Virus record (IMG/VR): IMGVR_UViG_3300028287_000410
Location: 32,001 to 96,000 of that record
Reading direction: 5' to 3' (one strand)
Source of the DNA: a virus
Length of the DNA stretch: 64,000 nucleotides
Positions within the stretch are counted from its first letter, which is position 1. The number at the start of each line of letters is the position of its first letter. A program made the position numbers and the translations under genes. Below are positions 10,264 to 56,923 of the stretch, in pieces. The notes beneath the pieces were generated by a model. That model ran no database searches, was not told where the DNA came from, and saw only the letters and a list, made by a program, of their open reading frames with translations.

Positions 10264-10264
10264 T

Positions 10265-12235: not shown

Positions 12236-13291
12236 TTATTCTACTAAGTTTAGACCGTCTATAACATCCCCATCAATGACCATATCAACCGGATGTTTTT
12301 CACCATAGAATTCATTCTGTTCCCAGCACTGGTCTTCTTCATTCCAATCAAACCAAGGGCTAACTGCTAATACGTAGTTAGTCCTTTTGTACCCTGGCAT
12401 TGGCTTTGCTACATATGGGCGATGTGTCACATATGTATCCCAAACATACCAATTTCCGGGAGTAAATGACTTTGTTCCATAATCTTCAATTTCAATACCA
12501 TATGCATTCTCTGGATTATCAAGTGCTAAGTTTATACGAAGTTCGTAAAACCAGCTTTCATCTCTGTGCCATAGGAATTTGTTTGCAGTCTCTTGTGTTG
12601 CTTTATCATCGATGCCTTTAATCTGAGCAATGCGACTACGCACAGGCGAAGACTTAATTCTATCCCTTAGTGTGCCTAAATATTCATGTCCAGAACATTC
12701 ACTCCAATTTCTAAATCCCCATGTGTCTGGGTACGTATCTTTGTTGATACGTTCACCTACGTCTTTTCTATCTTCGTATGTATCTAAAAGTTCATTTAGT
12801 ACAGTATCGTCAATTATACCATGTTGATGTAAATATCTAAACCCATGATGCATCCCAAACTCCTGGGTCTCACTCCACAAGTCTTTATCTAGACGTTTTT
12901 CCATAATCTTTTCAAATAATGAAAAGTTCTTCATAAACAGTTCATCTGGAATGTTATTTCTAGGATACCCTAATGTCTGTGCATTCTTTGGAATATTGTC
13001 ATATCTATATGTAGGATTAGTCACCAAACTCAATCCACCATAGTTAGAACTTCTAGCAAATTTACCTTGATATATGTTTAGAAACCCATACCAACCATAC
13101 TTTACGAATGCGTCTTCGATACTGTCTCTTAGTGTGTCCACATCTAATTTCGTATCTTCAAATTCGAACAATACACCTTCTTTGCTTGGTTTCATTGTTT
13201 TAGCATATTTGTCAGTATCCAGAGTTTCTGCAATCCAGGCATGGACTGCTTTTCTATCTGGGCAATCTTTTATGTAAAATCTTTTCTTCAT
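12236..13291 (-). CDS. Putative 2OG-Fe(II) oxygenase-like protein
   Basis: WHRDE (HxD), RINLAL, WDTYVTHRP distal His, RTN. Confidence 0.55.
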   Translation of the reverse strand: MKKRFYIKDCPDRKAVHAWIAETLDTDKYAKTMKPSKEGVLFEFEDTKLDVDTLRDSIEDAFVKYGWYGFLNIYQGKFARSSNYGGLSLVTNPTYRYDNIPKNAQTLGYPRNNIPDELFMKNFSLFEKIMEKRLDKDLWSETQEFGMHHGFRYLHQHGIIDDTVLNELLDTYEDRKDVGERINKDTYPDTWGFRNWSECSGHEYLGTLRDRIKSSPVRSRIAQIKGIDDKATQETANKFLWHRDESWFYELRINLALDNPENAYGIEIEDYGTKSFTPGNWYVWDTYVTHRPYVAKPMPGYKRTNYVLAVSPWFDWNEEDQCWEQNEFYGEKHPVDMVIDGDVIDGLNLVE

Positions 13292-14463
13292 TTTTTATAA
13301 CTCACATCTCCGGGATAGATAGGAACCATTGCGCCGGGCGCACGTTTTGGAATTTTACTGTCAGCACTAGATACACAACTATCTGAAATACACACCTTAG
13401 GCGCATCGAATAGTTTAAACCCACTCTCAATATACCCTAAGGGCTCGTCAGAACAACTGTAAGAGCGTTTAATAGACCCATCAGGCTCACGTATAATAAT
13501 ACCCTTAAACCCGCTTGTACAATCCCAACCTTTAAACTTGTTAAAGTTAAACGCATTAAAGCGTTCTGCTTGGTCCATGTAGTACTTGTCACCTTTACTA
13601 TCTTCGAACTCTACTTGCATGATAGGTGGGACATTCTTATCATCGCCATTAATCATATCCATCTTCCACATGCTTCCTGTGCGTGGCTTTGGACGCATTG
13701 CTTTAATAGTATTCGCTTTTTCAATAGTATCAGTGTACGCACGTTGTGGCATACCATTCTGCATCATCTTTAGTTGTTCGTCTGTGTATCCGTCTACAAC
13801 ACGTGATGCAGTAGGATCTGACTGTGGTTTTAGAGTAACATTGATTCCACGCTCATGAAAGTACATTGCGTTATTCCAATCTCTATCAAACCAGTCTGGT
13901 ACAAGTACCATATTGATTGTTACTTGCACATCATGTTCCATACAGAATAGAAGTTTGTCAGCAAATTCATCCATCTTTGCATATTCACTGTGATAAGATG
14001 CAGTAATACTTGCACGATGAAACTTTGCAACAATGTCACAATATTTCTGAAACCAATCCATCTTACGTGCCATATTTGTTGTCATATGAACAGAGGTATA
14101 ATTAGTGTTATCGACATCATCAGCCAAATGCTGCAAAATATCCAAGTATCCTGGATGAAAAGTAGGCTCACCGCCAGACAAAGAAAAATGGAAACTATTA
14201 AAACTGTTATCACGTGCTTGCCTCTTAATTTCATCTATGGTCGCTAGACACAACTCTGTTGGTCTATGATCTTTTCTATCACTTCTGGCATAAGGCCAGC
14301 AGTACGAACACTTGTAGTTACAGAAACGTCCTAATAACCAAGACACTGAAAACAAATCCCTGTATAAAAGTGTTCGTTGACCTACCTTAACGATATCATC
14401 ATACGGCGTTGCTGTAAAGTCGTATTGTGACCAGTAGTCTGCATCTTTTTCAATCTTATCCAT
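13288..14463 (-). CDS. Radical SAM protein (C-terminal Cys cluster)
   Basis: CNYKCSYC, SGGEPT, GWDC...SC...C....C. Confidence 0.92.
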   Translation of the reverse strand: MDKIEKDADYWSQYDFTATPYDDIVKVGQRTLLYRDLFSVSWLLGRFCNYKCSYCWPYARSDRKDHRPTELCLATIDEIKRQARDNSFNSFHFSLSGGEPTFHPGYLDILQHLADDVDNTNYTSVHMTTNMARKMDWFQKYCDIVAKFHRASITASYHSEYAKMDEFADKLLFCMEHDVQVTINMVLVPDWFDRDWNNAMYFHERGINVTLKPQSDPTASRVVDGYTDEQLKMMQNGMPQRAYTDTIEKANTIKAMRPKPRTGSMWKMDMINGDDKNVPPIMQVEFEDSKGDKYYMDQAERFNAFNFNKFKGWDCTSGFKGIIIREPDGSIKRSYSCSDEPLGYIESGFKLFDAPKVCISDSCVSSADSKIPKRAPGAMVPIYPGDVSYKK

Positions 14464-14465: not shown

Positions 14466-15893
14466 TTATACCTTGTATTTTTTCATCGCGTTATATAGTT
14501 CTGGCAACTGACGTTCCATATCTTCGTCGCGGATGTCATCTAACTTGCTGTTATATTCCCAAAACTTTTTATTGTTTTCTTCTGTGAACCAATCTTCTCC
14601 GTACATGAAATTAATATTCGTGTCTAACAGATTATCCATTTTCTTGATAGCCCACTCTGCATTTGCAGGTTTTATCATTCCTATTACGTTTGGATTTTTC
14701 TTAACTAGACTATGAAAATCAATAGTGTGTACTATTTCTTCTTTAAATTCAGTCCTAAATGCTTCCCAACTATCACGTACTTCATCCTTTACATCTTTCG
14801 GTAGGAAACGAGTACTTAATTCATGTGGTTTGTGAATAGGGTGTACATTTGCAAAAGGTTTTAAGTTATTCTTCAGTATAGGAGAGATAACTGCAAAATC
14901 TTGTTCAATCTTCCATTTTAAAAACTCTGGCAAATGAAATGCATTTAGGGAACCGATAGTAAATGCAATCCAGGCTCTAAAATTCATAGTCTGTGTGCCT
15001 ACTTCATCTAGTTTCTTTAGATTTTTTTCTATTAGTTTTGACTTCAATGGGTTGCGTACATATTCTAGTGTGTCTCCGATACCGTCCATAGAGATACCAA
15101 ACTGTACTTGCTTAAAGTTAGTCCATAAGTCTAACGCACGTGGTTGGATATTTGTTAGGTTAGTATTATACTCAAGTGTCATTTCTTTTGCTTTACCTTG
15201 CTCTACACAATACTTTAAGAAATCATAATGTCTTTCAATAATAAGTGGTTCGCCGCCTACTAGATATACGTGTTGCATACCAGCTACGTTCTCTTCTAAG
15301 TTCTCCCAGAAGTGATCTTTGTGTACCCAATCGTAATCATCAGCGACATACTTTCCCTTCTTATTCTTATACATTTCAACGACACCATGTGTGTCTTTGA
15401 ATTTACTTGATCCCCACATTTTAACATAGTCATCATACCAAGCACTAGAATCCATCGGTGAACACATACGACATTTTAAGTTACAAAAGTTACCTAATCG
15501 AATATCGTAATACGTTTGCTTAATATGCTCTAAGTCTATTGTACCATCTTCTTCTGTATGAGCTACCGCCTGATCCCAAGTAATGTGTTGTGCAAAACGT
15601 TCACCATCATTGATACGTCGAGATTTCATACCTGCTTTTTCTTCACGTACACAACGAATACATTCCTTATGCCACTTACCTTCAAGCATAGTAGAACGAA
15701 TTTCTTTTGCTAATGGAGAGTTAATCGCATCAGTGATTTGGTCATGATGCAAATTATAGTTTGTTCCGTCTTCTTTCTTGTAAATACCACGTGTCGGTCC
15801 TTGATTAGCATGACAACACACACGCAAATCTCCATTTGCACGTGTCGAAATGTTTATCCATGGTAGAATACAGAATGTATCACTCTTTTGCAT
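14466..15893 (-). CDS. Radical SAM protein with N-terminal twitch/SPASM domain
   Basis: FCILPW..VCC..CIRC; CNLKCRMC; GGEPL. Confidence 0.92.
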   Translation of the reverse strand: MQKSDTFCILPWINISTRANGDLRVCCHANQGPTRGIYKKEDGTNYNLHHDQITDAINSPLAKEIRSTMLEGKWHKECIRCVREEKAGMKSRRINDGERFAQHITWDQAVAHTEEDGTIDLEHIKQTYYDIRLGNFCNLKCRMCSPMDSSAWYDDYVKMWGSSKFKDTHGVVEMYKNKKGKYVADDYDWVHKDHFWENLEENVAGMQHVYLVGGEPLIIERHYDFLKYCVEQGKAKEMTLEYNTNLTNIQPRALDLWTNFKQVQFGISMDGIGDTLEYVRNPLKSKLIEKNLKKLDEVGTQTMNFRAWIAFTIGSLNAFHLPEFLKWKIEQDFAVISPILKNNLKPFANVHPIHKPHELSTRFLPKDVKDEVRDSWEAFRTEFKEEIVHTIDFHSLVKKNPNVIGMIKPANAEWAIKKMDNLLDTNINFMYGEDWFTEENNKKFWEYNSKLDDIRDEDMERQLPELYNAMKKYKV

Positions 15894-17115
15894 ATTCGTT
15901 CATCTCCGTATCTTCAAAGTTCTCTTCGCCGTTGCCTCTGAAGTCTAATTCTTTACCACAAGTCTTACCGCAAATCCAAAGACGTTCATCTGAATTTGTT
16001 TCCCAGCTTGCTACTAAGTCATTTGCAAAATATGGGGTTTTGAGTATATCAAATAATGAATGTTTTGATAAATCATTGAAATCTTTGCCATATCGTTTCC
16101 ACATATTCTTATTGTCTTCGATACGTCTTGGCGTTGCCATATCGTGTCCTATTTTACTATAGTAATGTCCCTGCCAACAGCAAGGCCATACTTTACCCTG
16201 ATAATCGATAAAAATACTCTTATCTCTTTTAGTTTGACATGCTATTTCTGTAACCTTTACATAATTATCAAACCCTTTGTGCTTTTTAATTACATCATCT
16301 ACTTTATTAGTAGTATTAGATTTTGTTTTTGTAGGTTCTGCTAAAATAGTTGCAAGTGCTTTCTCTTTTTGTTCTGTTGTCTTACTTTCAATTTTCTTTT
16401 TGTTTTTTGCTACATGTTGTTTAGCAACAAATGTTAATTCTTTTTTAGTTTCAATAGCTTCGACTTCTTCTCCCTCGTAATGTGTAGGGATAACATATCT
16501 ATTTGATTTCTTATATCTAAACTTGACAAAGCCCATGTCTTCTGCTAGTTGTCTCGCTTCATCTATCTGATGCTCATTGTGTGCAAAGCCTATGAAGTCC
16601 CAACGTGCAATGCCACCATTAGCAATGAATGCTTTTGCATTACGCATAATAATATTCCACTTAGAATTCACACGATACAAATGATTAGTGTCTTCTAGTC
16701 CATCGATAGCAAAGATAACCTTGTCTGGCTTTCGCATAATAGATGCAAGTTCAATCCACCACGCTTCCGTCTGTGCAGAACCGTTTGTACTCAACGTAAC
16801 TTGTGCTACTCCCATATCTTTGCACATCTTTACCACTTCTAGTAAATATGGATACATGATAGGATCACCGTAGTTCCCATTAATGAATACGTGATTAGGA
16901 AGAAACGGTTTCATGTCTTCCAATGCTTGTTGTATTACTCTAGGATCAGTATCAGTTAAGTCTAAATCATCACGCTTCTTTAGCTTTATGTTATCTCCAT
17001 CCATGCCAGTTGTTCTTCCGCACATCGGGCACAGTAAGTTGCACCTAGAAGTAAGTTCTAAATGCATCACACCTACATCAAATTTGATGTACTCTAAGTT
17101 CTCTGATTTCGCCAT
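15880..17115 (-). CDS. Radical SAM protein with C-terminal SPASM-like domain
   Basis: CNLLCPMC, GNYGDP, FAIDGL, VWPCCW...CGKTC. Confidence 0.92.
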   Translation of the reverse strand: MAKSENLEYIKFDVGVMHLELTSRCNLLCPMCGRTTGMDGDNIKLKKRDDLDLTDTDPRVIQQALEDMKPFLPNHVFINGNYGDPIMYPYLLEVVKMCKDMGVAQVTLSTNGSAQTEAWWIELASIMRKPDKVIFAIDGLEDTNHLYRVNSKWNIIMRNAKAFIANGGIARWDFIGFAHNEHQIDEARQLAEDMGFVKFRYKKSNRYVIPTHYEGEEVEAIETKKELTFVAKQHVAKNKKKIESKTTEQKEKALATILAEPTKTKSNTTNKVDDVIKKHKGFDNYVKVTEIACQTKRDKSIFIDYQGKVWPCCWQGHYYSKIGHDMATPRRIEDNKNMWKRYGKDFNDLSKHSLFDILKTPYFANDLVASWETNSDERLWICGKTCGKELDFRGNGEENFEDTEMNEYAKE

Positions 17116-18689
17116 CTTAAAAATATTTCTTTAGGTAAGTTTCTGTATGCATGATTCAGTTCTTTAATTTGCATTCCTCTAGTAGGAGTGCCGTCCCAGT
17201 CAGCACTATGTAATCGAATTCTATTGTTTAATTTACTAACATCATTAACAAAACGTTTGTATACGTCCCGTCTTTCTTCATATGATTTAATCCACATTGT
17301 GTAACGTGTAGTTATATAGTTACTACTCCACATAACATCCTCAGTTGTATCATCTTGTGTAGTGTCGATCATTGGAAGTAAAGAACTCCAGTCAGTGATT
17401 AAGTTTGCTTGTGTATATGTTACTTTATTATCCCTTACTCTTTCAAAGAACTCATACCATTCTTCCATGCTGTTAAAGATACGCAAGATACTTGCTTCGT
17501 ATGCTTCTTTAGCACGTTCACGTTCTGATGCCCAGTCCTCAGACATATAATCGAAATCTTCATATATAGAGATTAACCCTATATCTTTATTATAATAGTT
17601 TTCTTTCAAAAAGTCAAGATACATATTAAAGTTTCTTGGATCCCATTCTTCATGGACCCACTTGCGTACATCTAATGCATTTTGTGAAATGTCAAAGTAA
17701 TTAATATTAACTGCGTCTATGTCTGTATCAGCATGCCAGTTTCTTAGAAAAGCAAATGTTTTAAATCCTGCTGCAACTGAATACACGTTACGCAACGGCT
17801 TTTTGTTAGGTACCATTTGAATATCGTTTACACTTTCTGTATTTAATATCCACATGGCATGAGGAGAACGTTCAACTGTAAATTGCTGATAACGTAGGAA
17901 TGCAGATTTAGAATCGCCCAAGTCTGACTCCCAATGTTTAAAGTCAGCACATCCTTCTTTAAAGAATTGTTTAAACTCAGTTTGTTCTTCTTTAATTTCT
18001 GGATATAAGTATGTCTTTGTAGCTCTTACATCTTCATCAAAGTTTCCTATAGCAATGCCATTCTCTAGACTAGTGTTTATAAAGTTCCACCCAAATCCAG
18101 TACGAGTAATTTTTTCATAAGCTGGTCCGGGTGCAATATACTTAGGAGTATGCTCATCGTGAAAGTTCTCTATACTACGAAGTGCTTGTCTTACTTCTGT
18201 AGGACGAACACTAAAATCACCGAATGCAGGCTCTCCTAGTTCTTTCCATAATTTATAATTGATTATAAAACATTGCTCATGAAATCTGAACCATCTATCT
18301 TTATGACGTTCATCAAGTATATGTCCCAATATTAGGAATTCATTATTCTGTGCCTTAGGTAAGTATTCGTGATTGCAGTATTCTCTGAATAAACTATATC
18401 CGTGTTCTAGTGGCTTCCAAGCATCATAAAATATATTACCGTATGCTTGAACTACAACCATATCAATATCAGATTCTTTATCATCTGTTTTCATTGCTTG
18501 TAAAATTTTATCTACACTGTCTTCTTCGTAAATAGTATGCTTAAAAAAACTATAATTATTTCGCAAGAAATTATAAGTGATTGCTTTCATGTAATCACTA
18601 ATTTCAGTATCACCTATTGTTTTAGATGTATCTAATACAGCACATCTAATCTGTGGATAAAAGTTATATGATCTTTGTTGCTTCTTCAT
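17094..18689 (-). CDS. Hypothetical protein (possible Rossmann-like C-terminal domain)
   Basis: 531-aa operonic ORF; YSVAAGFK...INYFDISQNAL. Confidence 0.6.
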   Translation of the reverse strand: MKKQQRSYNFYPQIRCAVLDTSKTIGDTEISDYMKAITYNFLRNNYSFFKHTIYEEDSVDKILQAMKTDDKESDIDMVVVQAYGNIFYDAWKPLEHGYSLFREYCNHEYLPKAQNNEFLILGHILDERHKDRWFRFHEQCFIINYKLWKELGEPAFGDFSVRPTEVRQALRSIENFHDEHTPKYIAPGPAYEKITRTGFGWNFINTSLENGIAIGNFDEDVRATKTYLYPEIKEEQTEFKQFFKEGCADFKHWESDLGDSKSAFLRYQQFTVERSPHAMWILNTESVNDIQMVPNKKPLRNVYSVAAGFKTFAFLRNWHADTDIDAVNINYFDISQNALDVRKWVHEEWDPRNFNMYLDFLKENYYNKDIGLISIYEDFDYMSEDWASERERAKEAYEASILRIFNSMEEWYEFFERVRDNKVTYTQANLITDWSSLLPMIDTTQDDTTEDVMWSSNYITTRYTMWIKSYEERRDVYKRFVNDVSKLNNRIRLHSADWDGTPTRGMQIKELNHAYRNLPKEIFLRWRNQRT

Positions 18690-19510
18690 TTTGTTGTTTT
18701 AGCCCAACTCTTTAAAATTAAATCTTCAAAATCTGATCCACCATATTGTCCATGAACAATCATATGCACACGAACTTCATCAGTATCATTCATTACTGCA
18801 TGACGATGACCTACATTCATCTTAAACATATTACCTGGCTTCCACGGAACATACGCATTGTCATCAATCATTTTAAAATGACAATTTTCTGGATTGTTCA
18901 ACGATATATTTAGTGGTCCTAATTTGTTGTGTTCATAATCTGTATGTGGTGTTATATAACCTCCCGGCTCTAAGTACATGTAACGAACTCTATCGAATGC
19001 TCTGTAACCCGGAATAGATTTAATCATCTTAACAGTCTCTGGACATTTATCTGCAATTTCAGTCCAATGATATGCTGCTCTTGCTTCACGTTCATCTGCA
19101 TACACAAAGCCTGCTGCGGCAACATCTTTACTATCCCAATGTTGAGATACATGCTTACCTAACCCATGTAGTGTCAGGGAGCGCCATCCTCTGTGTCCAT
19201 AGTCATCGGGGTTGTTCTCATCATAATCGTTCTTTCTATGTTGAATTGCTTCATCGTAAACTGCCATTGCTTCATTATAACATGCATTCCAATCAAACTC
19301 AGGGACATCTAATTTTAACCATGGGATACCTGACTCGTGTGTAACCCATTTTGCTTGTCTGAAACGTGCTGATGGTGGGAATCTAGGCTCATTCATCATA
19401 GCATCTACAAATGTACCTGGCATCGTATCAAAGCTATAACTATTTCTATCTTTAAAATGTTCTTCTATTGTTTTTGGGTATTCCATTATACCAATCTCCC
19501 GAATGCCCAT
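18686..19510 (-). CDS. Aspartyl/asparaginyl beta-hydroxylase-family 2OG-Fe(II) oxygenase
   Basis: WRSLTLHG, RVRYMYLEPGGYITPHTD, HRHAVMN, RVHMIVH. Confidence 0.8.
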   Translation of the reverse strand: MGIREIGIMEYPKTIEEHFKDRNSYSFDTMPGTFVDAMMNEPRFPPSARFRQAKWVTHESGIPWLKLDVPEFDWNACYNEAMAVYDEAIQHRKNDYDENNPDDYGHRGWRSLTLHGLGKHVSQHWDSKDVAAAGFVYADEREARAAYHWTEIADKCPETVKMIKSIPGYRAFDRVRYMYLEPGGYITPHTDYEHNKLGPLNISLNNPENCHFKMIDDNAYVPWKPGNMFKMNVGHRHAVMNDTDEVRVHMIVHGQYGGSDFEDLILKSWAKTTK

Positions 19511-21697: not shown

Positions 21698-21728
21698 ATT
21701 AACTCCAATACTTTGATTATGTACGTAT

Positions 21729-31049: not shown

Positions 31050-31078
31050 ATTATAACAGATTAATCGTCCGTTGTAAA
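31050..31078 (-). promoter_or_regulatory. sigma70-type promoter for 27363..31022
   Basis: Minus strand TTTACA-17-TATAAT. Confidence 0.6.
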
Positions 31079-33445: not shown

Positions 33446-33465
33446 ATTATTATTCCTCTAATTTA

Positions 33466-35158: not shown

Positions 35159-35160
35159 AA

Positions 35161-48294: not shown

Positions 48295-48298
48295 TTTT

Positions 48299-49309: not shown

Positions 49310-49316
49310 GCATTAC

Positions 49317-50081
49317 TTACTTTTCTATTGTATACCTATTTATATCAAACGGGCTTCTTTTATTTTGTCCGATGTTTATAAAATATTTCATTGCTTGTCT
49401 CGCTAACAACTTTTTATTAGTATCTGACATATGATTTAGTTTTTCAAAATATTTAAGGTTTTCCCTGCGTACTATTTGCATTAAGTTAAACTCATCGCCA
49501 TCAAAAAGGTCACTAAATGAATGTAATACTAATACATCATTTTTCATAGTATTCAAATAAGTTTGTACAAGACTAAATTGATTTTTTACATCATCAGCAT
49601 ACATGCAGCGTGTTAAGTATGTTTGCCAAAATTCTTTATCTTTTTTAAAATATTTACATTGTTCTTTAGGAATAGAGGACAGTTCAAAATCAGGATCTAT
49701 AAATTTCCACGCCGTAGAATGCCAACCTTGAGATTCATCATCTAATAAATTTGTAACACGTGAAGCATTGGTCACGCCGAATATTATAGTATCATTTTCG
49801 TCATACTCAGTTTCCATATAATGAAACAGCATTTGAACACTATAATTTAAACTAGTACCTGAGTTTGCATAATTTAAAAGACTCATATTCAAATTATCTG
49901 CTAATAAACCTGTCCAAGACAGACCTTGATTAGGTATATTATGAATCTTACCCGTGCTATGTTGAAAAAAACTATCCCCGAATACTACTAGCCGCCGGCC
50001 TTTTTTATTATTGTCAGTACGATGGATCTTGCGGTTTTCATAATTTATACTTAGTAATAAATTTTTAAGTCTTCTAGTCAT
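49317..50081 (-). CDS. SGNH-like protein
   Basis: VFGDSF, NYANSGTS, LNHMS; start uncertain. Confidence 0.7.
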   Translation of the reverse strand: MTRRLKNLLLSINYENRKIHRTDNNKKGRRLVVFGDSFFQHSTGKIHNIPNQGLSWTGLLADNLNMSLLNYANSGTSLNYSVQMLFHYMETEYDENDTIIFGVTNASRVTNLLDDESQGWHSTAWKFIDPDFELSSIPKEQCKYFKKDKEFWQTYLTRCMYADDVKNQFSLVQTYLNTMKNDVLVLHSFSDLFDGDEFNLMQIVRRENLKYFEKLNHMSDTNKKLLARQAMKYFINIGQNKRSPFDINRYTIEK

Positions 50082-51465
50082 AGCGTTTCCACCAATCATA
50101 TAATTCTGTATCTAGTTTGTAAATATCTTCTAATCGATACTGCTCTTGTCTAATCTTATCAAGTCTATCCTGATAGCCTTTACCATTCTTAAACTCTTGT
50201 TCGTGTGTATCTGGGAACTGTTCAGCAAACGTTGGGCGTTTCTTCATTTCGATAAGGGTATTTATTAGTGTCTCTTGCTTGTTAGTTGCAATGGGTTTCA
50301 TATAATCAAGTAGCTCATCAATCTTTCTGTCCAGAATATGACGCGGCCACGCGAACGGTGACATAACGATGTCAGCATGGAACGCAAACATTATCTTTGT
50401 TTCCATACGTACATCTAGCTCTAATGATAAGTCAAACAAATCTTTTAGTGAGAACATGCCCGGACCAGTGATAGTCAAATCAAACAACATCCTGTGTTTA
50501 CCGCCTGGTGCCGCCAGTCCTTGCTTAAAGTTGTCTAGCCACTCCTCCCATACGATACCTTTACGAATGAACTCTACGATATCTCCTGTGCCATCAATAC
50601 TCGCACACATCAACCAGTCTTTAAACTGTGGCAGATAGTCAAACAAGTTCTTGCCTTTAAAGTCTACACGTGATAGATTAGAATTATAACGCAAATGACA
50701 GTTCTTTGCAGAACCGTTGTTTACCATTTCTTCTAATGCCCACCAATGTATATCATACATAAGAGGTTCTCCGCCTACCCAATAGATTTCTTCTACTACG
50801 CCATCAGAGATAGCTTTCTTGAATTCAGGTTCAGCAACATCTTTCTGAAACTTTTGCATCTTTTGTTTAACTGTTGGTTGCATAAAAGGCTGATGTTCAA
50901 TCGACCACATATCATGCTTTTTCTTTTCAGCTTCCCATGCACTTGATAATTGCTCACCGCACATACGACATTTAAAGTTGCATAGATTACTGTAGCGATA
51001 ATCAAATGAGATTGTAGGCATAGTTGTATACCCATCATCATCTGTTTTGTCAAATGCTTCCTGAATTTTATCTTTAAACAGAACACCAGTGAACCACTTG
51101 CGATACGAACTTAGAGATAGAGTGTCATCATTACATACATCACATTGTGGGATACGTTCACCCGCCATTAGCTTCTTGCGAATGTCACGCATGTATGGGG
51201 AGTTCCAATGCTCTTCTAATGTCATCGGATTGAAATCATCAGCATCAGTTTTAGAATCAGTTACTTTGCCATATTTTGAATCGTTTGATGCATCAATATA
51301 TTGTTTCTGAAAAGAATGCTCTTCACGTGATGCACAACACATTCTACGTTCACCCTGTGGAGAGATATAAGTATGTGACCATGGTGCCATGCAGAAAGTT
51401 TTGTTTTCACTTTCTTCTGCACAACTCGCATCGTCTTTCCAGATGGGTATAATTCTTTTAGTCAT
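50074..51465 (-). CDS. Radical SAM protein with N-terminal twitch/SPASM domain
   Basis: FCMAPW..MCC..CDVC; CNFKCRMC; GGEPL. Confidence 0.92.
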   Translation of the reverse strand: MTKRIIPIWKDDASCAEESENKTFCMAPWSHTYISPQGERRMCCASREEHSFQKQYIDASNDSKYGKVTDSKTDADDFNPMTLEEHWNSPYMRDIRKKLMAGERIPQCDVCNDDTLSLSSYRKWFTGVLFKDKIQEAFDKTDDDGYTTMPTISFDYRYSNLCNFKCRMCGEQLSSAWEAEKKKHDMWSIEHQPFMQPTVKQKMQKFQKDVAEPEFKKAISDGVVEEIYWVGGEPLMYDIHWWALEEMVNNGSAKNCHLRYNSNLSRVDFKGKNLFDYLPQFKDWLMCASIDGTGDIVEFIRKGIVWEEWLDNFKQGLAAPGGKHRMLFDLTITGPGMFSLKDLFDLSLELDVRMETKIMFAFHADIVMSPFAWPRHILDRKIDELLDYMKPIATNKQETLINTLIEMKKRPTFAEQFPDTHEQEFKNGKGYQDRLDKIRQEQYRLEDIYKLDTELYDWWKRYD

Positions 51466-52702
51466 GTACGTAACTCGCTAACTCTGGTAAGTAATCTTCA
51501 ACTCTTTGATTTCTAATGGTATCTAACTTTCTTGTAATCTTAGAATACTGTGGCCACCATTCTTCATGCATACTTGGGTTATCAAGCATTTTTCTATAAC
51601 TTATAAACTGCGGTAGTGTATATGATACATCATTATTCTGAGTTTGTAAATAGTTAATATGGTCATCTAGTTTCTTTTTTGCGTTATTCATCACTTCAGG
51701 AGGAGCAATTTCTACACGATAATATTCTGGATGAAACAATGGGTTAAGTCCAAACTTGTTAATGTCTATAAGTTCATTCTCATACAAATACTTATGCAAG
51801 TCTACGACATGGTCAATGTTCATGATACCAACAGTACAGCTATCAAATATTTCTACGTTCGGACATTCACGTCTTATAAGACGAATGTTCTCTTCAATCT
51901 TGTCCCACGGTTGCCCTGCTCTTACGTATTCCGCACGTGGACCATATGCATCAATAGATGCCATAATCTTAACACGTTCTAGTTTATTCCAAATATCAAT
52001 TGCACTGCGTTTCTTGTATGTAAGTTGACTTAAATTTGTCTGATAAAAGATATGAGCATTAAGATTTCCCTGTGCAATTACTTCATCGATGAAAGCCCAA
52101 TGCTCTGGCATAATAAGAGGTTCACCACCTGCAAAGTAAATACGTTCTAAATTTTTAATTTGTGGTCTAGTTTCATCCATCAATGAATCAAAATTACTTC
52201 TAACTTTTTTTACTTTTTGATGGTGTATCGCAAACGTATCACCTAATAGTTTAACACTATCATCAAACCACATTGTACTAAAATCAGGACCGCAACTTCT
52301 ACACTTCATATTACAATTGTTACTGAAACGAATATCCCAATATGTAATTCGTAGCTCGTTTAAAGTGCCATCCTCTGAGGTGTTTTCTACTAAATCATAA
52401 TGATGACCGTTTTCTTTATTCATACTTTGTCGTAAAGATTTGAATCCATATTCTTCTTGCTCATAGCATCGTGTACACGCTTCACTACGTTCTCCGTTAA
52501 GCATGTTCTTACGTAGTTGTTTTGCTTTATCTGTATTAAGAATATCTCCGAGTGGAGTATCATTTAAATTACCAAATTGATGTTCTTTTCCAACATTACT
52601 TAAACAACATGGATACACTTCACCACCTGCCCAAGCATGTACATGTACCCAAGGTGCCATACAGAATACTTTACTATCTTTTATATCATATTTGTTCATC
52701 AA
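51458..52702 (-). CDS. Radical SAM protein with N-terminal twitch/SPASM domain
   Basis: FCMAPW..PCC..CTRC; CNMKCRSC; GGEPL. Confidence 0.92.
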   Translation of the reverse strand: MMNKYDIKDSKVFCMAPWVHVHAWAGGEVYPCCLSNVGKEHQFGNLNDTPLGDILNTDKAKQLRKNMLNGERSEACTRCYEQEEYGFKSLRQSMNKENGHHYDLVENTSEDGTLNELRITYWDIRFSNNCNMKCRSCGPDFSTMWFDDSVKLLGDTFAIHHQKVKKVRSNFDSLMDETRPQIKNLERIYFAGGEPLIMPEHWAFIDEVIAQGNLNAHIFYQTNLSQLTYKKRSAIDIWNKLERVKIMASIDAYGPRAEYVRAGQPWDKIEENIRLIRRECPNVEIFDSCTVGIMNIDHVVDLHKYLYENELIDINKFGLNPLFHPEYYRVEIAPPEVMNNAKKKLDDHINYLQTQNNDVSYTLPQFISYRKMLDNPSMHEEWWPQYSKITRKLDTIRNQRVEDYLPELASYVHD

Positions 52703-53825
52703 TATACTCTACTAATTCTGGGAATGCTACTTCAAATAGTCCCGGTCTTGTTCTTCTTGAATAATCTAATTTACTACGAAGGTTAGATATATCTCCAGTG
52801 CCGTTCATTATTCTAATCAACCAATTATCATTACCAATAATTGGGTTAATCTGACAATCATCTAATTTGTGATTTTCAAATTTAAGTCTAATACGCTGTT
52901 TAAATTCTTCTGGTAAGTCAATAGAATTAAATGGGTGTGTGACAATATTATTGAATACTTTAACATTATGTTCACTGCACCAAACATGAAAGTCCGGCAA
53001 GTCAAATATATTTAGTGCGGATACACTATGCGATATTTCTACTTGACATAAGCCTTCATCTCTAATAGAAATAAATTTCTTAAACACTTCATATGTTTCT
53101 TCCCATTTACCTGGATATCTCTGAAACTCAAACTTCTCATGTGTGTTATCTAGGCTAAGCATAATACGAACAAGTTTAAACTCTTTAAAATATTTAACAA
53201 GTTCTTCTGGCCATATAGTACAGTTAGTAAACCATGTGATTTCGATATTCTTTGCTAAGTCACGTTTAACAAGAAACTCAATCAGAATCTTTTGCTTCTT
53301 AATCATGAACGGTTCCCCACCTGCTAATTCAACTCTTTTCAAGTTATTAGCATGTAGATTAAGTTCTTCCCAGAATTCATCTGTGTCTTGCCATTTAGGT
53401 GCAGGCGTATACTTAATACCAAATTGTTTATCTATACTTCCCCATTTACTACTAGAATGCGAACCACAAATTGCACATGCTAAGTTACATGTGTTCCCCA
53501 TTTTTAAATCGATTGATTGTAGCATGTCTTGTTCAAAACCAAGATTATCTTTCCAAAGTTTTATCTCTCTGGTACGTTTACTTTCACCGCCAGACTTTTC
53601 TACGTCATAGCACTGAGTACAATCTTTTTCAAAATGTGAATCGAAGTTATCAATCCATTCTTTTCTATCTGATGAATTGATAACTTCTGTAATAGTATTT
53701 GTATATGCGTTTGCTTTTTTGCCATCAATAGAAAAACGTTTTGAGCTAATACAACACGGAGTCATTTCTCCTTGTGTCGTAAGTTCAATATTGTTAGTTA
53801 CTAATGGACAAAACTTCCTAGTCAT
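52686..53825 (-). CDS. Radical SAM protein with N-terminal twitch/SPASM domain
   Basis: FCPL..PCC..CTQC; CNLACAIC; GGEPF. Confidence 0.92.
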   Translation of the reverse strand: MTRKFCPLVTNNIELTTQGEMTPCCISSKRFSIDGKKANAYTNTITEVINSSDRKEWIDNFDSHFEKDCTQCYDVEKSGGESKRTREIKLWKDNLGFEQDMLQSIDLKMGNTCNLACAICGSHSSSKWGSIDKQFGIKYTPAPKWQDTDEFWEELNLHANNLKRVELAGGEPFMIKKQKILIEFLVKRDLAKNIEITWFTNCTIWPEELVKYFKEFKLVRIMLSLDNTHEKFEFQRYPGKWEETYEVFKKFISIRDEGLCQVEISHSVSALNIFDLPDFHVWCSEHNVKVFNNIVTHPFNSIDLPEEFKQRIRLKFENHKLDDCQINPIIGNDNWLIRIMNGTGDISNLRSKLDYSRRTRPGLFEVAFPELVEYIDEQI

Positions 53826-55365
53826 CTACCACAACACCACCTAGTGCGTCATTCTCTGTATCCCAACCACCAACAGCTTTCTCATGTTCATCATCGCCGC
53901 CATCATACGCTTCAGTCGTTGCAGGGTCCCCGGCACGATCCGCAACACTAAGAACAAACGTTTTAGTCTTAATTTGTTCTTCTGTAGGGACTTCCGCTTC
54001 AAGTGTTTGATACCAATCTGCTATTGGACCAGGGAATGTTTCGACAAAGTTATGACCTCTACGCACATCAAACTGTTGAAAGAATGCTTTAAAGTCATGA
54101 TATAGTTTATCTTGCTCGGCTGTATTCTTATGTGGAGTCTTAACAATATCAAGATAATCAATTAGACGTTGAATACTTGCGCGTTCGCCATCAGTCAATG
54201 CTTGTTGATTTAAAAAGAACCATGCTTCTAGTTTGTCTTTATAGAATGTTTTGATATTCACAGGAAGAATTGCCGCACTTTGAAATGATGGGAAACGTAA
54301 AATGTTTAGCGTCATTGTTGGCGCACGTTTTCCATATTCTTTACGTAGTTCAAGCATCTCATCCATGAACTCTGTAATAGTAGTTAAGCATAATGAATTG
54401 ATTGTCATCATCATATGTAACTTCTGTACATTAGATTCTTTAAGAACACGATGGATACTATTCATCCATAGATCATAATCTAGGCCGTCACGTATATACT
54501 CAGCTTGTGTTTTTGCTGCTTCCATCGATGTGTAAATTTCAAAGTTGGGAACATGCCATGATTTCTCGATCAATTTGTCCAACACTTTGGGTGTCTGCGG
54601 AGAGAGATTACTATTGATAGCAAATCTCATGTTACGACCGCGATGTGGATTTTGTTCAAACCAATCAAACAACTTCCATGTACCAGTATGCATAATAGGC
54701 TCGCCGCCTGTAATGCGAATTTCTTCTAAGTTGTCTGCAAGATCACTTTCCCACCATTCGTGAAACGCTTTAATGAACGGGTTGTCTTCTGCTTTTCTTG
54801 CTGCAGGTTCTGCCCATGGTGCAGTGTCAACAAAGTGACCGCGACCATCAGACTGAATGTTTTGATATGCACCATAATCGTTGATGTCTTTAACCCATGC
54901 AGTTGAAAATGCTGGGTTACAATAAGTACATTTTAGATTACATGCTCTATCGAATGAGATTTCAAGTGTGCGTAGAAGCGCATTTTGATCCCATGGCATT
55001 TCCATACTTGCATCAATATCTTCATCTTTGAAGATTTCAGTTTTGAATACACGGTCAGAGATATGGTCTTTACCCATGTCTTCAACTTTCCAACAGTATT
55101 CACATTCTGCTGGGCGCTTACCTTCTTGCATTTGCTTACGCATAAGTTTCTTATGCTTTGTATTGTGAATTGCAGTTGGGTTATCTTTTAATTCTTCAAG
55201 TGGAATCCAGTGCCCGGGCGGGTGGTGACAACTTGCTGTCTGTCCGTGACCTAACCAAATAGTAGCGTTATACCATTTAGCGGCACAGTAGCTTTCACTC
55301 TTGCTGTCGATCATACGCTCTTTGTATTGATGAAGGGTTTCGCCTTCCCAGTGTTTACGCCCCAT
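53818..55365 (-). CDS. Radical SAM protein with N-terminal twitch-like domain
   Basis: CAAKW..SCHHP..CEYCW; CNLKCTYC; GGEPI. Confidence 0.92.
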   Translation of the reverse strand: MGRKHWEGETLHQYKERMIDSKSESYCAAKWYNATIWLGHGQTASCHHPPGHWIPLEELKDNPTAIHNTKHKKLMRKQMQEGKRPAECEYCWKVEDMGKDHISDRVFKTEIFKDEDIDASMEMPWDQNALLRTLEISFDRACNLKCTYCNPAFSTAWVKDINDYGAYQNIQSDGRGHFVDTAPWAEPAARKAEDNPFIKAFHEWWESDLADNLEEIRITGGEPIMHTGTWKLFDWFEQNPHRGRNMRFAINSNLSPQTPKVLDKLIEKSWHVPNFEIYTSMEAAKTQAEYIRDGLDYDLWMNSIHRVLKESNVQKLHMMMTINSLCLTTITEFMDEMLELRKEYGKRAPTMTLNILRFPSFQSAAILPVNIKTFYKDKLEAWFFLNQQALTDGERASIQRLIDYLDIVKTPHKNTAEQDKLYHDFKAFFQQFDVRRGHNFVETFPGPIADWYQTLEAEVPTEEQIKTKTFVLSVADRAGDPATTEAYDGGDDEHEKAVGGWDTENDALGGVVVDD

Positions 55366-56923
55366 ATTTTACCTCGTATTCTTCTTTAGCTTCATTCCAG
55401 AAGTCTGTCATTTCAGGGAATGTTTCTAAGAAATTTAGTCCCCTACGCTTATCGTACTGTGTAAAGTATTCGTAGAAACGAATTAACTTATCACTTAATT
55501 CTGCGTCACTCATATTTAGTCCTTCTTTTGCCCAAGCTAAATCACGCTCAAGTTTTAGGACTTCATAGTTCTTAAACCCAGTGTACTTACGACCATACAA
55601 GTCGTTCTCTAATACGTTAGCTTTCATATAATCAATGTTCTGTTGAATAGTATCTAACATGATAGGATCTGCTAACTGAATGGTCATCCAGTCTGGATAG
55701 CGTAAGTAAGGAATATCAAACCAAATACGTTGACGTTTTTTACGAACAAATTCTGGATGCTTAAATCCATTTCGGTCGGGAGGCTGAATAACTTTGTCTT
55801 CTTGTTTCTCATAGCCAAACTCTTCACGTAGTTTTAGAATCATATCTAAGAACCCACGTAAATTCGGTATACTTAGGAGAGTAAAAGTGTTAATAAATGA
55901 AATCTCTGTACCATCTGTTTCAGATAATACTCGACGGCAATTTTCATACATTGTATCAAAATCAAGACCATCACGCAGATATTCAGCCTGTTTCCCAACA
56001 CTGTCTACACTTACATATAAACTAAAATGTTTACATGCTGGTGCAACATACCAATGATTGCCGCTATCAGGATTGAAACGTTCTGGATCTTCCCAAACAC
56101 GGACTTCTTCTAATTTCTGTATTTTCGCAATGAACTTATCCATTAACGCTGGTTGAGGAGGCGCCATGTTTGACGTAATACTCAAATCTAAGAATGCGTT
56201 TGGATTTTCATTGACGTAATCTAATACTTTGAATGTATTCTTATCCATGAGAGGTTCACCACCTGTCATACGAAATACTTTCAAGTCTTTATATGTTTCT
56301 GGAAACCACTTCCAGAATGCTTCGATATATGGATTATCTTTACGTGCAACTTCAAGTGGCATCATGCCAGTCTTACGTAAGTAATCAATATCATTATGTC
56401 CAGTACCATTTGAGAAGCGGAAGCCACCATGCTTCTTAATATCATCTTCCCATGCTGTACTAAGATGCGGAGAACAATAAGAACACTTTAAGTTACACGC
56501 TTGATTGAAGTTTACTTCAACATATCTCGGTGTAATCTTATGATCCCATGGATTATTTACTACTTCATCCCATGCGTCTTTAACCCACCACTCACTTGAG
56601 CGATAATGTCTGTCACTCAATCTTCCTTCTGTGGGAGCATTGGGCGCATCTTCTACATTCCAACAGTACTGACAACCCTCAGGGCGCTTACCCTGCAACA
56701 TTTGCTTACGCTCTTGCATCTTGAATGTTGTATTGTGTAATGCACCTACATCTTTTTTCAGTTCATCTAACGGAATCGCATGTGTGGGAGGATGATAACA
56801 ACTATGTGTGCGACCTTGTGGTAAATGCAAACTTACTTGCAACCACTTAGCCATACACATTGAAGGTGAAAGAGAATTTAATTTTTGACGTGTTGCTTGT
56901 GCATCGTCATCGTAATTTGACAT
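55355..56923 (-). CDS. Radical SAM protein (paralog of 53818..55365)
   Basis: CMAKW..SCYHP..CQYCW; CNLKCSYC; GGEPL. Confidence 0.92.
   Translation of the reverse strand: MSNYDDDAQATRQKLNSLSPSMCMAKWLQVSLHLPQGRTHSCYHPPTHAIPLDELKKDVGALHNTTFKMQERKQMLQGKRPEGCQYCWNVEDAPNAPTEGRLSDRHYRSSEWWVKDAWDEVVNNPWDHKITPRYVEVNFNQACNLKCSYCSPHLSTAWEDDIKKHGGFRFSNGTGHNDIDYLRKTGMMPLEVARKDNPYIEAFWKWFPETYKDLKVFRMTGGEPLMDKNTFKVLDYVNENPNAFLDLSITSNMAPPQPALMDKFIAKIQKLEEVRVWEDPERFNPDSGNHWYVAPACKHFSLYVSVDSVGKQAEYLRDGLDFDTMYENCRRVLSETDGTEISFINTFTLLSIPNLRGFLDMILKLREEFGYEKQEDKVIQPPDRNGFKHPEFVRKKRQRIWFDIPYLRYPDWMTIQLADPIMLDTIQQNIDYMKANVLENDLYGRKYTGFKNYEVLKLERDLAWAKEGLNMSDAELSDKLIRFYEYFTQYDKRRGLNFLETFPEMTDFWNEAKEEYEVKYGA

Follow-up and report, generated by a model that had tools for sequence, protein, structure and literature searches.

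The DNA analysed here, a window of 64,000 nucleotides (G000:C1:32001-96000) from a virus record of IMG/VR that is 107,762 bp long and, by the CheckV estimate, about 30% complete, is a fragment of a marine jumbo phage containing 15 intact radical SAM genes; the whole record has 18 matches to PF04055. The best reading of this array and its partner genes, to which we give about an even chance, is a vertically inherited, phage-encoded island for building a glycan (or glycoconjugate) and tailoring it by radical chemistry, adjoining the tail and baseplate genes. The initial annotation had proposed fifteen radical SAM enzymes in a phage genome, and both parts of this proposal are confirmed: the record encodes a T4-type DNA polymerase and a baseplate wedge, within a T4-like core that is kin to the jumbo phages Rak2, XacN1 and Atu_ph07, and all 15 reading frames are open, with one CxxxCxxC apiece and a match to PF04055. 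Eleven of these matches lie above the Pfam gathering score and four below it (20135, 22745, 53818 and 55355), of which 20135, 53818 and 55355 are rescued by full-length matches to the NCBIfam family NF033640, and 22745 by its 32% identity to its paralog 15880. Because the CxxxCxxC motif is accompanied by a whole-domain profile match in every case, the array is far beyond chance. Lack of expression, which the same annotation had named as a possible objection, is not indicated: near-identical contigs are present in three marine metatranscriptome libraries, where DNA carry-over is possible.

The cysteine layout follows the split initially described, with ten N-terminal clusters, four C-terminal groups and one enzyme without any, as judged from cysteine positions, Pfam and NCBIfam. 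What had been missed is that the N-terminal twitch architecture is already known. The ten enzymes share the pattern C-x17/18-(C)C-x41-62-CxxC in a domain that matches Pfam SPASM with up to 45.9 bits, and in an NCBIfam search all belong to NF033640 (N_Twi_rSAM; 237-430 bits, cut-off 170 bits), so that their reversed domain order is already catalogued. In common with that family they have an N-terminal domain of four or five Cys, the CxxxCxxC and the GGE motif for SAM binding, the latter and the core cysteines being invariant in N-Twi enzymes. The difference lies in copy number: 13 anciently diverged paralogs in this phage record, at least 12 of them full-length matches above the curated cut-off, versus a single copy in each bacterial isolate genome. 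Like all features described below between 13288 and 62557, unless otherwise stated, these genes lie on the minus strand: 14466..15893 (475 aa; NF033640 358.6 bits), 20135..21853 (429.7 bits, match from residue 77), 23817..25028 (403 aa; 283.5 bits), the pair 45938 and 47104 within 45938..48294 (388 and 396 aa; 320.3 and 350.4 bits), and five consecutive genes within 50074..56923, namely 50074, 51458, 52686, 53818 and 55355 (327.6, 383.3, 236.8, 311.1 and 304.4 bits, respectively).

Among the enzymes with C-terminal groups, 13288..14463 (391 aa; C315, C337, C358, C363; CNYKCSYC at residue 48; PF04055 48.2 bits) and 21729..22745 (338 aa; C275-C327; PF04055 38 bits) are paralogs with 25% identity, and neither has an NCBIfam family above cut-off, the best matches of 13288 being N_Twi (47.7 bits against 170) and viperin (42.8 against 180). 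The other two have twitch-like cysteines: 15880..17115 (411 aa; C293, C312, C313, C382, C386; PF04055 37 bits), in which SPASM scores 20.8 bits at residues 293-382, slightly below the cut-off of 21.5, and 22745..23833 (362 aa; C258, C277, C278, C346, C350; PF04055 26.4 bits, below cut-off). The enzyme without auxiliary cysteines, 34238 (306 aa; PF04055 58.2 bits), is encoded on the plus strand together with the acyl carrier protein (ACP) that follows it (34238..35397; ACP at 35161-35397, 78 aa, PP-binding 51.2 bits, DSL motif); its best NCBIfam match is TrsS, of which it is not a member (85 bits against 490).

As initially noted, the copies are very divergent, with 20-35% mutual identity, yet intact and tightly packed, most neighbours overlapping by 1-26 nt or being separated by 0-7 nt. 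If translation of 20135 starts at the internal Met (residue 53) at 21697, probably the true start, the protein has 520 aa and the gene no longer overlaps 21729 by 125 nt. The suggestion that selection keeps the copies distinct is also upheld: in the tree the orthologs from related phages pair off paralog by paralog, and purifying selection is strong, with dN/dS values of 0.07-0.16 relative to the nearest relative wherever they could be computed, dS being saturated. The duplications are therefore old, and different copies are kept for different jobs. Orthologs of 20135 and 14466 in the related record G012 have 65% and 42% identity, and those of 45938 and 47104 in record L001 80-82%; the order of the quintet 50074-55355 is kept in related phages. 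The array is clade-wide and not peculiar to one phage, a fact that the initial annotation missed and papers have remarked on in passing. All 20 related IMG/VR records tested have N-Twi matches, 4-18 in each, and among them recurs a syntenic core that adjoins the tail and baseplate genes and consists of a pair of GT8-fold proteins, a single GT-A-fold protein, N-Twi enzymes and a carbamoyltransferase. The order 60635-60196-59330-58476-57904-56924-five radical SAMs-carbamoyltransferase is found again in related phage records. Complete relatives also have an adjacent IscU-IscA pair, which fits with a real demand for Fe-S clusters. Contigs binned as Bdellovibrionales carry relatives of 14466 with 40% identity.

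The partner genes, likewise overlooked at first, point to a sugar substrate; their products are found in 46-60 of 80 related viral loci. The two paralogs at 58476..60196 (285 and 288 aa; model pLDDT 93.6) are glycosyltransferase-like proteins of predicted GT8 fold, for which Foldseek returned 366 matches at E<=1e-3, with glycogenin at 6e-7 and LARGE1 and GlyE among those listed; homologs occur in 51 and 46 of the 80 loci. The protein at 56924..57901 (325 aa, invariant D63 and D65; AlphaFold pLDDT 92; homologs in 60 of 80 loci) appears to have a GT-A fold: its Foldseek matches, though weak (E about 1e-3), comprise GT-A enzymes only, and its model gives a middling Z of 9.3 to STIV A197 and B4GALNT1 (rmsd 3.2-3.5 over 135-140 residues; structure comparison, VIA) for a fold common to nucleotidyltransferases too. 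PBCV-1 A64R and the peptide S-glycosyltransferases SunS and ThuS are also among its structural matches. A 1219-aa protein (27363..31022) ends in a GT-A-like domain (residues 994-1216; 33% identity to 56924 over 245 aa), and 43645..45948 encodes a DUF6071-like protein (195 aa; PF19547 24.7 bits, below cut-off), an SGNH/GDSL-like protein (44220, 287 aa; GDSF motif near the N-terminus, read by eye) and a GT-A-like protein (45076, 290 aa; weak GT34 match of 17.8 bits). Further candidates for decoration are a carbamoyltransferase of NodU/CmcH type (31061..32593, 510 aa; PF16861 185.5 bits, PF02543 152.1 bits; homologs in 40 of 80 loci), a 2OG/Fe(II) oxygenase of the Asp/Asn beta-hydroxylase family (18686..19510, 274 aa; PF05118 62.7 bits), a QueC-like PP-loop ATPase (19486..20142, 218 aa; PF06508 29.9 bits in the N-terminal part only) with a C-terminal CxxCxxC (Cys 201, 204 and 207), and an SGNH/GDSL-like 260-aa protein (49317; GDSFF read by eye) lying with a 336-aa protein in 48299..50099, neither with family matches.

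Around these lie a DUF6071 protein (243 aa; PF19547 37.9 bits) and a cupin/2OG-like protein (201 aa; Cupin_2 and PF05118 weak, below cut-off) at 32714..34071, two 22% paralogs of 469 and 315 aa (25029..27385) that are possibly heme-oxygenase-like oxidases, given a weak TENA/THI-4/PQQC match (19.8 bits, below cut-off), and a 531-aa protein (17094..18689) negative in Pfam, NCBIfam and PHROG, for which ESM Atlas returned viral hypothetical clusters only. A 206-aa protein without family matches (57904..58524) has a conserved position in the module. The 126-aa product of 60196..60576 is encoded by the first gene past a sigma-70-type promoter (60603..60631; TTGACA-17-TATAAT, 12/12) in the 58-nt gap upstream, which is a candidate only, because promoter-like sites in the region are not more numerous than in shuffles. 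Beyond it, 60635..62557 encodes two Cys-free, Ser/Thr/Gly/Ala-rich paralogs (60635 and 61640; 324 and 305 aa, 28% identity, no family matches), which evolve faster than any other genes of the block (53-65% to L001) and by composition and sequence are candidate virion proteins and candidate acceptors.

What, then, would so many radical enzymes be doing beside glycosyltransferases? The analysis shows family membership, architecture, conservation, synteny and the predicted folds of the partners; that the substrate is a sugar, what each enzyme does to it and what the acceptor is, we infer. The GT8-fold proteins 58476 and 59330, along with 56924, the C-terminal domain of 27363 and perhaps 45076 on the GT-A side, would transfer sugars from host-derived NDP-sugars to an acceptor. 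Each N-terminal-twitch paralog would cleave SAM at the [4Fe-4S] cluster of its CxxxCxxC, and the resulting 5'-deoxyadenosyl radical would take a hydrogen from a carbon of the sugar, after which the twitch cluster with its four Cys would act as electron sink or conduit. Each paralog could thereby perform a distinct oxygen-independent edit, by dehydrogenating, epimerising or deoxygenating the sugar or by forming a C-C bond, following the precedent of BtrN, NeoN, AprD4 and BlsE in antibiotic pathways; the carbamoyltransferase, 2OG oxygenases, SGNH-like proteins and PP-loop ATPase would add further decorations. Within this glycan reading, roughly half of our expectation for the acceptor falls on virion proteins (for example 60635 and 61640), one third on the host envelope polysaccharide and the rest on something else.

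The conserved association with predicted glycosyltransferase folds, glycogenin/GT8 for the 58476 family and GT-A for the 56924 family, favours this glycan reading, as does similarity to BtrN, the butirosin 2-deoxy-scyllo-inosamine dehydrogenase and founding twitch-domain radical SAM sugar enzyme. BtrN also has a core plus one auxiliary twitch cluster, and positions 8-82 of the N-Twi profile align to its C-terminal twitch domain (E 1e-4), although a domain-only profile gives E 0.56, the order in the phage enzymes is reversed, with twitch before core, and the cores lack significant similarity. A 253-kb contig binned as Bacteroidales has three N-Twi genes in tandem and, immediately after them, two glycosyltransferases of GT2 and two of GT1/GT4 type. 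The recurring synteny, the retention of distinct copies and the NDP-sugar epimerase/dehydratase-family gene next to the one-enzyme island of the Ralstonia phage RsoM2USA speak for a glycan too. Against a glycan count the lack of any NF033640 member of known substrate, the nearest solved structures by sequence, which include peptide modifiers (TigE, anSME, SkfB) no less than enzymes of sugars (BlsE, BtrN), and the single-copy homolog of bacterial isolates, which lies in ACP/ketosynthase/AMP-ligase clusters and not in glycan clusters. Neither this record nor three (near-)complete relatives yielded a sugar-1-phosphate nucleotidylyltransferase. The virion glycosylation machineries that chlorovirus PBCV-1 (A64R) and mycobacteriophages (capsid and tail) encode likewise have GT-A glycosyltransferases whose genes lie close to those for structural proteins or which modify such proteins; none of these systems is known to involve radical SAM tailoring, and in the present clade virion glycosylation is putative.

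The bacterial clusters would suit a pathway for a small molecule akin to a lipid, polyketide or aminoglycoside, in which the radical SAMs tailor an ACP-bound or free metabolite made during infection, such as a glycolipid bearing acyl groups or halogens or a compound resembling an antibiotic, and not a polymer- or protein-linked glycan. In Paenibacillus the gene order is ACP, N-Twi, ketoreductase, KS, KS, AMP-ligase (KS, ketosynthase); in Eubacterium the N-Twi gene accompanies an rSAM/SPASM, an ACP, a C39-like/ACP protein and an acyltransferase; and on a Cytophagales-binned contig it precedes a 3304-aa ORF with ligase-like and KS-like matches. Besides the ACP, the window itself has genes for an AMP-ligase, a halogenase-like protein, a desaturase and a KS, which also weighs against a glycan, and antibiotics are often tailored by carbamoyltransferases and 2OG oxygenases. 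We nonetheless consider such a pathway unlikely: the core conserved among phages is glycosyltransferase-like and N-Twi genes adjoining tail genes and does not include the ligase/KS genes (0-1 of 80 viral loci), the homologs from bacteria are all placed next to a single phage ortholog group (51458 type, toward which sampling is biased), and no exporter or resistance gene was seen.

Distinctly unlikely, in our estimate, is direct post-translational modification of phage proteins or peptides as by RiPP maturases, in which virion proteins would receive thioether, C-C, epimer or hydroxyl modifications before the glycosyltransferases add sugars. Characterised SPASM/twitch enzymes are mostly peptide maturases, and TigE (8vpo, E 7e-12), anSME and SkfB are the best sequence matches among solved structures, but this similarity does not extend beyond the core that radical SAM enzymes have in common. 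Proteins are frequent substrates of Asp/Asn beta-hydroxylase-family enzymes, SunS and ThuS resemble 56924, and Cys-free Ser/Thr-rich proteins adjoin the array; however, no RRE/PqqD-type domain appeared in the Pfam scans, the blocks have hardly any intergenic space for precursor genes, neither leader peptidase nor transporter was seen, and the bacterial contexts are PKS-like or glycan-like, not RiPP-like.

Hypermodification of phage DNA against host nucleases, with a base of 7-deazaguanine or glycosylated hydroxymethyl-pyrimidine type, would engage the QueC-like protein, a thymidylate-synthase-family gene (11347-12234), the weakly QueE-like 13288 and 21729, and glycosyltransferases, which in phages can act on DNA. 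It is very improbable, since no TGT/DpdA homolog was found in this record, three (near-)complete relatives or RsoM2USA, the QueE models give no more than 26-33 bits where 206-260 are required, thirteen anciently diverged paralogs far exceed the need of any known base-modification pathway, and the module is tied to tail genes, not replication genes. Ordinary cofactor or housekeeping enzymes acquired as auxiliary metabolic genes, which the initial annotation had named as the outcome that would overturn its case, are effectively refuted by the curated NCBIfam cut-offs, the matches to MoaA, QueE, NrdG, PqqE and viperin models all being partial (18-54 bits against 131-381, cluster-binding core only) and partner genes of those pathways not being seen in the window.

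Comparable genes have been noticed in marine T4-like phages, in pelagimyophages and cyanomyophages, where a hypervariable region flanks the tail-fibre genes (Zaragoza-Solas et al. 2020, PMC7029224), and in a viral genome that has 12 genes for radical SAM enzymes (Nishimura et al. 2017, PMC5332604). These phages share GT8 glycosyltransferases, radical SAM cassettes, Asp/Asn beta-hydroxylase, fabF and desaturase near tail genes, as well as phage-encoded IscU and A-type carrier genes alongside many Fe-S proteins. However, the genes were only remarked on there, and neither the family with N-terminal twitch domains nor the sets of orthologous paralogs nor the conserved GT/rSAM core was recognised; the present phage differs in having a DNA polymerase nearest to Rak2/Atu_ph07-type jumbo phages. 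A cultured parallel is the jumbo phage RsoM2USA (MG752970), whose ORF347-358 share gene order and orthologs with the window but include one N-Twi radical SAM versus 13, all island genes being annotated as hypothetical; neither IscU nor IscA was found in this phage. Identities are 32% for ORF347 (with 25029), 43% for ORF348 (27363), 35% for the N-Twi ORF349, 47% for ORF350 (56924), 27% for ORF351 (57904), 41% and 35% for ORF352 and ORF353 (the GT8-fold pair), 37% for ORF354 (60196) and 26% for ORF355 (60635), and in the tree 55355 and 53818 group with the single N-Twi copy. The island ORF347-355 adjoins the tail sheath, a virion protein confirmed by MS and the baseplate wedge (PMC8504454), and beside it ORF358 matches the NAD-dependent epimerase/dehydratase family PF01370 with 180 bits.

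The fifteen open reading frames that the initial annotation assigned to radical SAM enzymes are indeed present and intact, each with exactly one CxxxCxxC, the motif for the SAM-binding [4Fe-4S] cluster, and each with a match to PF04055 that in 11 of the 15 exceeds the Pfam gathering score of 29.5 bits. Among those scoring lower, 20135 (28.5), 53818 (26.8) and 55355 (22.8), designated here by their lower window coordinate, are rescued by full-length membership of the NCBIfam family NF033640, and 22745 (26.4) by its 32% paralogy to 15880. The genes had also been described as translationally coupled, and they are packed head to tail with overlaps of mostly 1-26 nt; the sole large overlap, of 125 nt between 20135 and 21729, is gone if 20135 starts at an internal Met at 21697, a start consistent with its NF033640 match beginning at residue 77. 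The feature is real and intact. Across the whole record, which is linear, 107,762 bp long and ~30% complete according to CheckV, PF04055 has 18 matches.

Ten of the window genes match NF033640 ("N_Twi_rSAM, twitch domain-containing radical SAM protein") over its full length (model positions ~1-397 of 398) with 236.8-429.7 bits, the curated cut-off being 170 bits. In the record as a whole, this model exceeds its cut-off at 12 places among the matches listed, and our own profile search finds 13 full-length N-Twi copies, namely the ten of the window plus three upstream of it (record positions 5440-6831, 27633-28853 and 29642-30904). The remaining five radical SAM proteins of the window score 32-48.5 bits and are non-members; the paralogs 15880 and 22745 share a similar C-terminal C..CC..CxxxC pattern, 13288 and 21729, paralogs at 25% identity, have other cysteines at that end, and 34238 has no auxiliary cysteines.

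All ten N-Twi proteins keep four N-terminal cysteines, and eight of them a fifth, upstream of the radical SAM core, while the Pfam SPASM model matches seven of them at residues 5-112, ahead of the PF04055 match (best score 45.9 bits, in 51458). The GGE SAM-binding motif is invariant (G192, G193 and E194) in an alignment of 21 N-Twi sequences. SPASM proper is a seven-Cys motif that binds two auxiliary [4Fe-4S] clusters; the N-terminal domain studied here, with only four or five conserved cysteines, is by cysteine count the predicted twitch (one-cluster) form. The N-Twi family profile aligns through its positions 8-82 with BtrN, at the C-terminal twitch domain of that enzyme (E 1e-4), and the predicted twitch assignment stands on three independent models; since the profile of the twitch domain alone reaches an E value of just 0.56 with BtrN, we refrain from matching the cysteine ligands one by one to those of BtrN. 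Moreover, the N-Twi proteins of the window match BtrN-type sugar dehydrogenases in the twitch part only and lie outside that group, which is defined by core plus C-terminal twitch: BtrN has its twitch domain at the C-terminus, whereas N-Twi enzymes show the reversed order, with the twitch first. This reversal, noticed from the start in ten proteins, is real, all ten being members of NF033640, but it is already catalogued under that entry; a literature search on N-terminal twitch and N-terminal SPASM domains found no paper describing the architecture. Fused proteins of 790-1100 aa that include two complete N-Twi units occur in public data (P0121-P0129 and others), and two related phage records have two N-Twi matches in a single open frame (G007:C1:63352-65715 and G015:C1:34311-36713).

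How old are these paralogs, and are they individually maintained? The window copies are mutually 20-35% identical, and when 62 family members are placed in a maximum-likelihood tree, no copy among the record's 13 has another of them as its nearest neighbour. For most of them the closest partner, with high support, is an ortholog from a related phage record, and the single copy of RsoM2USA, a cultured Ralstonia jumbo phage, groups with 55355 and 53818. Compared with the closest relative locus, L001, protein identity is 70-88%, dN is 0.10-0.23, and dN/dS is 0.07-0.16 where computable, dS being saturated or undefined. The ortholog-wise tree and the low dN/dS support the idea, put forward earlier, that many distinct enzymes are being retained by selection. 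Radical SAM enzymes carry out chemically difficult reactions, and new chemistry has tended to come with each newly characterised subfamily; here one catalogued but little-described subfamily is represented in a single phage record by 13 anciently diverged, individually conserved paralogs.

The phage encodes a T4-type DNA polymerase that is closest to those of Sinorhizobium phage Phosso (50%) and Agrobacterium phage Atu_ph07 (45%), followed by jumbo phages of the Rak2/XacN1/CBB type (~42%), together with a baseplate wedge protein. Near-identical or closely related DNA is found in marine, seawater and estuary metagenomes of many studies; megablast of window positions 1-12000 against GenBank phages gives zero matches. 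A survey of copy number in relatives, which the initial annotation had proposed, finds several family matches in 20 of the 20 related records tested, including two complete genomes with terminal repeats (346,856 bp with 16 matches and 337,119 bp with 7) and a 92%-complete one of 342 kb with 18. At least 563 IMG/VR stretches encode N-Twi relatives in a degenerate-pattern scan, and when 1.84 billion representative proteins are searched exhaustively with a profile, 8,056 clusters (50% identity) reach E <= 1e-30, some of which are fused tandem doublets. Two papers remark on such genes in passing: one on 12 radical SAM genes, along with Fe-S assembly genes, in the genome of a marine T4-like virus (PMC5332604), the other on "radical SAM cassettes" found together with GT8 glycosyltransferases beside the tail fibres, in the hypervariable region of pelagimyophages (PMC7029224). 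Since the enzymes belong to a catalogued family and such gene sets have already been mentioned in print, the present record is a rich further example and not a new kind of thing.

When all window proteins are compared by tblastn with 80 related viral loci, the GT-A-fold protein 56924 recurs in 60, the GT8-fold paralogs 58476 and 59330 in 51 and 46, the carbamoyltransferase 31061 in 40 and the Ser/Thr-rich protein 60635 in 27, and the order 60635-60196-59330-58476-57904-56924, five N-Twi genes and carbamoyltransferase recurs across records. PHROGs and Pfam are uninformative for 56924, 57904, 59330, 60196, 60635, 61640, 17094 and 48299, and for 60635 and 17094 the ESM Atlas yields hypothetical viral clusters and nothing else. 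Because these partners had no Pfam or PHROG assignment, we aligned the phage homologs of 56924 and of 58476 and modelled the two families from these alignments. For the 58476 family, the model (pLDDT 93.6) shows the same GT8 fold as glycogenin, LARGE1 and GlyE, with glycogenin matched by Foldseek at 6e-7 among 366 matches at E <= 1e-3, and the family consensus contains an invariant D97 in an EAD motif. In the model of the 56924 family (pLDDT 92), residues 2-157 fold as a GT-A domain in which D63 and D65 are invariant, and the VIA Z score to STIV A197 and B4GALNT1 is 9.3; its Foldseek matches are weak, yet every one is a GT-A enzyme. On the basis of these models, 58476, 59330 and 56924 combine a GT-A Rossmann-like fold with an acidic DxD-type metal/nucleotide-sugar site and are predicted glycosyltransferases, with none of them reaching a Pfam GT family. 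The 1219-aa protein 27363 ends in the same domain as that of 56924. Read by eye, the sequences of 44220 and 49317 open with GDS(F), a motif that SGNH esterases and acyltransferases typically have, and the two are putative SGNH-like proteins.

Among 50,697 GenBank phage records, only RsoM2USA carries orthologs of 55355 (35%) and 56924 (47%). Its ORF355-347 follow the gene order of the window but with a single N-Twi enzyme, ORF349, and the same block includes ORF358, which matches the NAD-dependent epimerase/dehydratase family (PF01370) with 180 bits. The next genes code for a virion protein confirmed by mass spectrometry (ORF356), the tail sheath (ORF359), a very large structural protein and the wedge of the baseplate (PMC8504454). 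The window matches this neighbourhood, its island lying beside tail and baseplate structural genes: a giant structural ORF of ~2,950 aa on the minus strand, occupying window positions 63358-64000 and running on to record position 104231, is followed on the same strand by the baseplate wedge protein (record positions 104234-107482; phrog_10646, E 7e-128), a pair found also in RsoM2USA as ORF361 and ORF362.

What, then, do so many radical SAM enzymes do in one phage? The best-supported reading, to which we give about an even chance, is that the island builds a glycan and tailors it by radical chemistry. Assembly of the glycan would fall to the glycosyltransferase-like proteins, each N-Twi paralog would perform its own SAM-dependent hydrogen-abstraction edit on sugar residues, and the carbamoyltransferase, oxygenases and SGNH-like proteins would decorate the product. 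As acceptor, virion proteins are slightly favoured over a host envelope polysaccharide, given the position of the island beside tail genes and the fast-evolving, Cys-free, Ser/Thr-rich paralogs 60635 and 61640. The conserved glycosyltransferase partners provide a testable substrate class, and the one-enzyme version in RsoM2USA a laboratory entry point.

An ACP-linked small-molecule pathway is the foremost alternative, though an unlikely one. Within the island, the plus-strand gene 34238 is followed by a 78-aa ACP with a DSL motif (35161-35397) and then by two paralogs of 333 and 340 aa, 38% identical and matching no family, the whole set spanning 34238-37410. Bacterial isolate genomes have one N-Twi copy each, surrounded in Paenibacillus by an ACP, a ketoreductase, two ketosynthases and an AMP-ligase, and in Eubacterium by another rSAM/SPASM enzyme, ACPs and an acyltransferase. 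On a 253-kb contig from a Bacteroidales bin, three N-Twi copies in tandem precede four glycosyltransferases, two of them GT2 and two GT1/GT4-type, and a Spirochaetaceae-bin contig has three copies with an FkbM-type methyltransferase. From these neighbourhoods, the family belongs to both lipid/polyketide-like and glycan-like clusters, and it is the multi-copy form that goes with glycosyltransferases.

Other bin contigs carry the full phage synteny, under the names of Haliscomenobacter, Betaproteobacteria, Verrucomicrobia and Rickettsiales; these are probably phage contigs binned with bacteria, so that we reject them as bacterial occurrences or host evidence, the host hint being at most weak. 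The full synteny of glycosyltransferase and radical SAM genes is seen in L084 and L085 (183 and 148 kb, Haliscomenobacter bins) and in L086-L088 (marine TMED and MED bins). Two contigs from Bdellovibrionales/Pseudobdellovibrionaceae bins (L110 and L111) have arrays of 14466-like and 20135-like N-Twi enzymes with C-terminal-twitch enzymes resembling 15880 and 22745, at 34-40% identity, and hence the enzyme mix of the first block exists also outside recognised phage records.

Direct modification of peptides or proteins is a less probable alternative again. RRE (PqqD-like) domains, which recognise peptides, are present in some RiPP maturases and lacking in others; the RRE/PqqD families are absent from Pfam scans of the 15 proteins, and the island leaves hardly any intergenic room for precursor genes. 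DNA hypermodification seems very improbable and is weakened by the lack of TGT/DpdA, TGT (PF01702) being absent from the present record, from three complete or nearly complete relatives and from RsoM2USA. The NTP_transferase family (PF00483) is likewise missing from all of these genomes. Ordinary cofactor enzymes, whose pathways (MoaA, NrdG, QueE, PqqE) the initial annotation had named as the counter-case, are effectively excluded by the curated NCBIfam cut-offs, for all 15 proteins fall below those of every functionally defined model, viperin and RiPP maturases included (best score/cut-off: MoaA 54.4/284, QueE 32.7/206, NrdG 23/131, PqqE 41.5/381, viperin 42.8/180).

Extending the glycan-tailoring reading, we tentatively propose, while considering it doubtful, that the N-Twi family (~8,000 clusters at 50% identity) constitutes a large untapped set of oxygen-independent carbohydrate editors, and that a clade of ~340-kb jumbo phages makes a hyper-tailored virion glycan with 7-18 different ones. 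If true, this would amount to a surface code based on radical chemistry, with no described counterpart in any virus. Were the product a virion or host-surface glycan, it would matter for how hosts are recognised, for superinfection exclusion and for the iron economy of marine bacteria under infection. Complete relatives bring their own IscU and IscA. The two genes are adjacent in two complete related jumbo phages (G002:C1:291412-292087 and G004:C1:30423-31098), and the 92%-complete relative carries IscA; neither is in RsoM2USA, which has one or two radical SAM proteins, nor is either found in the ~30% fragment that is the present record.

As to expression, short contigs are spread across window positions 44000-63300 in three marine metatranscriptome libraries from two studies, those of the best library being mostly 95-99% identical and falling in 29 of the 30 bins of this interval, but DNA carry-over is a possible source. 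A candidate sigma-70 promoter with perfect TTGACA-17-TATAAT lies on the minus strand at 60603-60631, in a 58-nt gap upstream of 60196-60576 and ahead of the block of glycosyltransferase and radical SAM genes; sigma-70-like sites overall are not in excess (91 versus 85 in shuffles). The perfect consensus would suggest early transcription by the host polymerase and not T4-type late control, and the T4 late-promoter motif TATAAATA, observed 4 times against 9 expected, gives no sign of the latter.

Some other genes in and around the island lie on the plus strand. The stretch that separates the two radical SAM blocks encodes, at 41765-43510, a protein of 581 aa that combines FG-GAP/VCBS repeats with a peptidoglycan-binding domain; L001 has a homolog of it, and a VCBS-repeat protein is listed elsewhere in the RsoM2USA genome (PMC8504454). 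Just upstream of the island lie an HNH endonuclease (7371-8711; phrog_1314, E 2e-101) and a thymidylate-synthase-family protein (11347-12234; phrog_160, E 3e-109). A separate cluster at 573-7313 comprises an AMP-binding ligase (573-1976), a tryptophan-halogenase-like protein (1973-3670), a fatty-acid desaturase (3555-4442) and a FabF-type ketosynthase (5039-6190), an enzyme set that is found also around the single N-Twi gene of Paenibacillus and Eubacterium.
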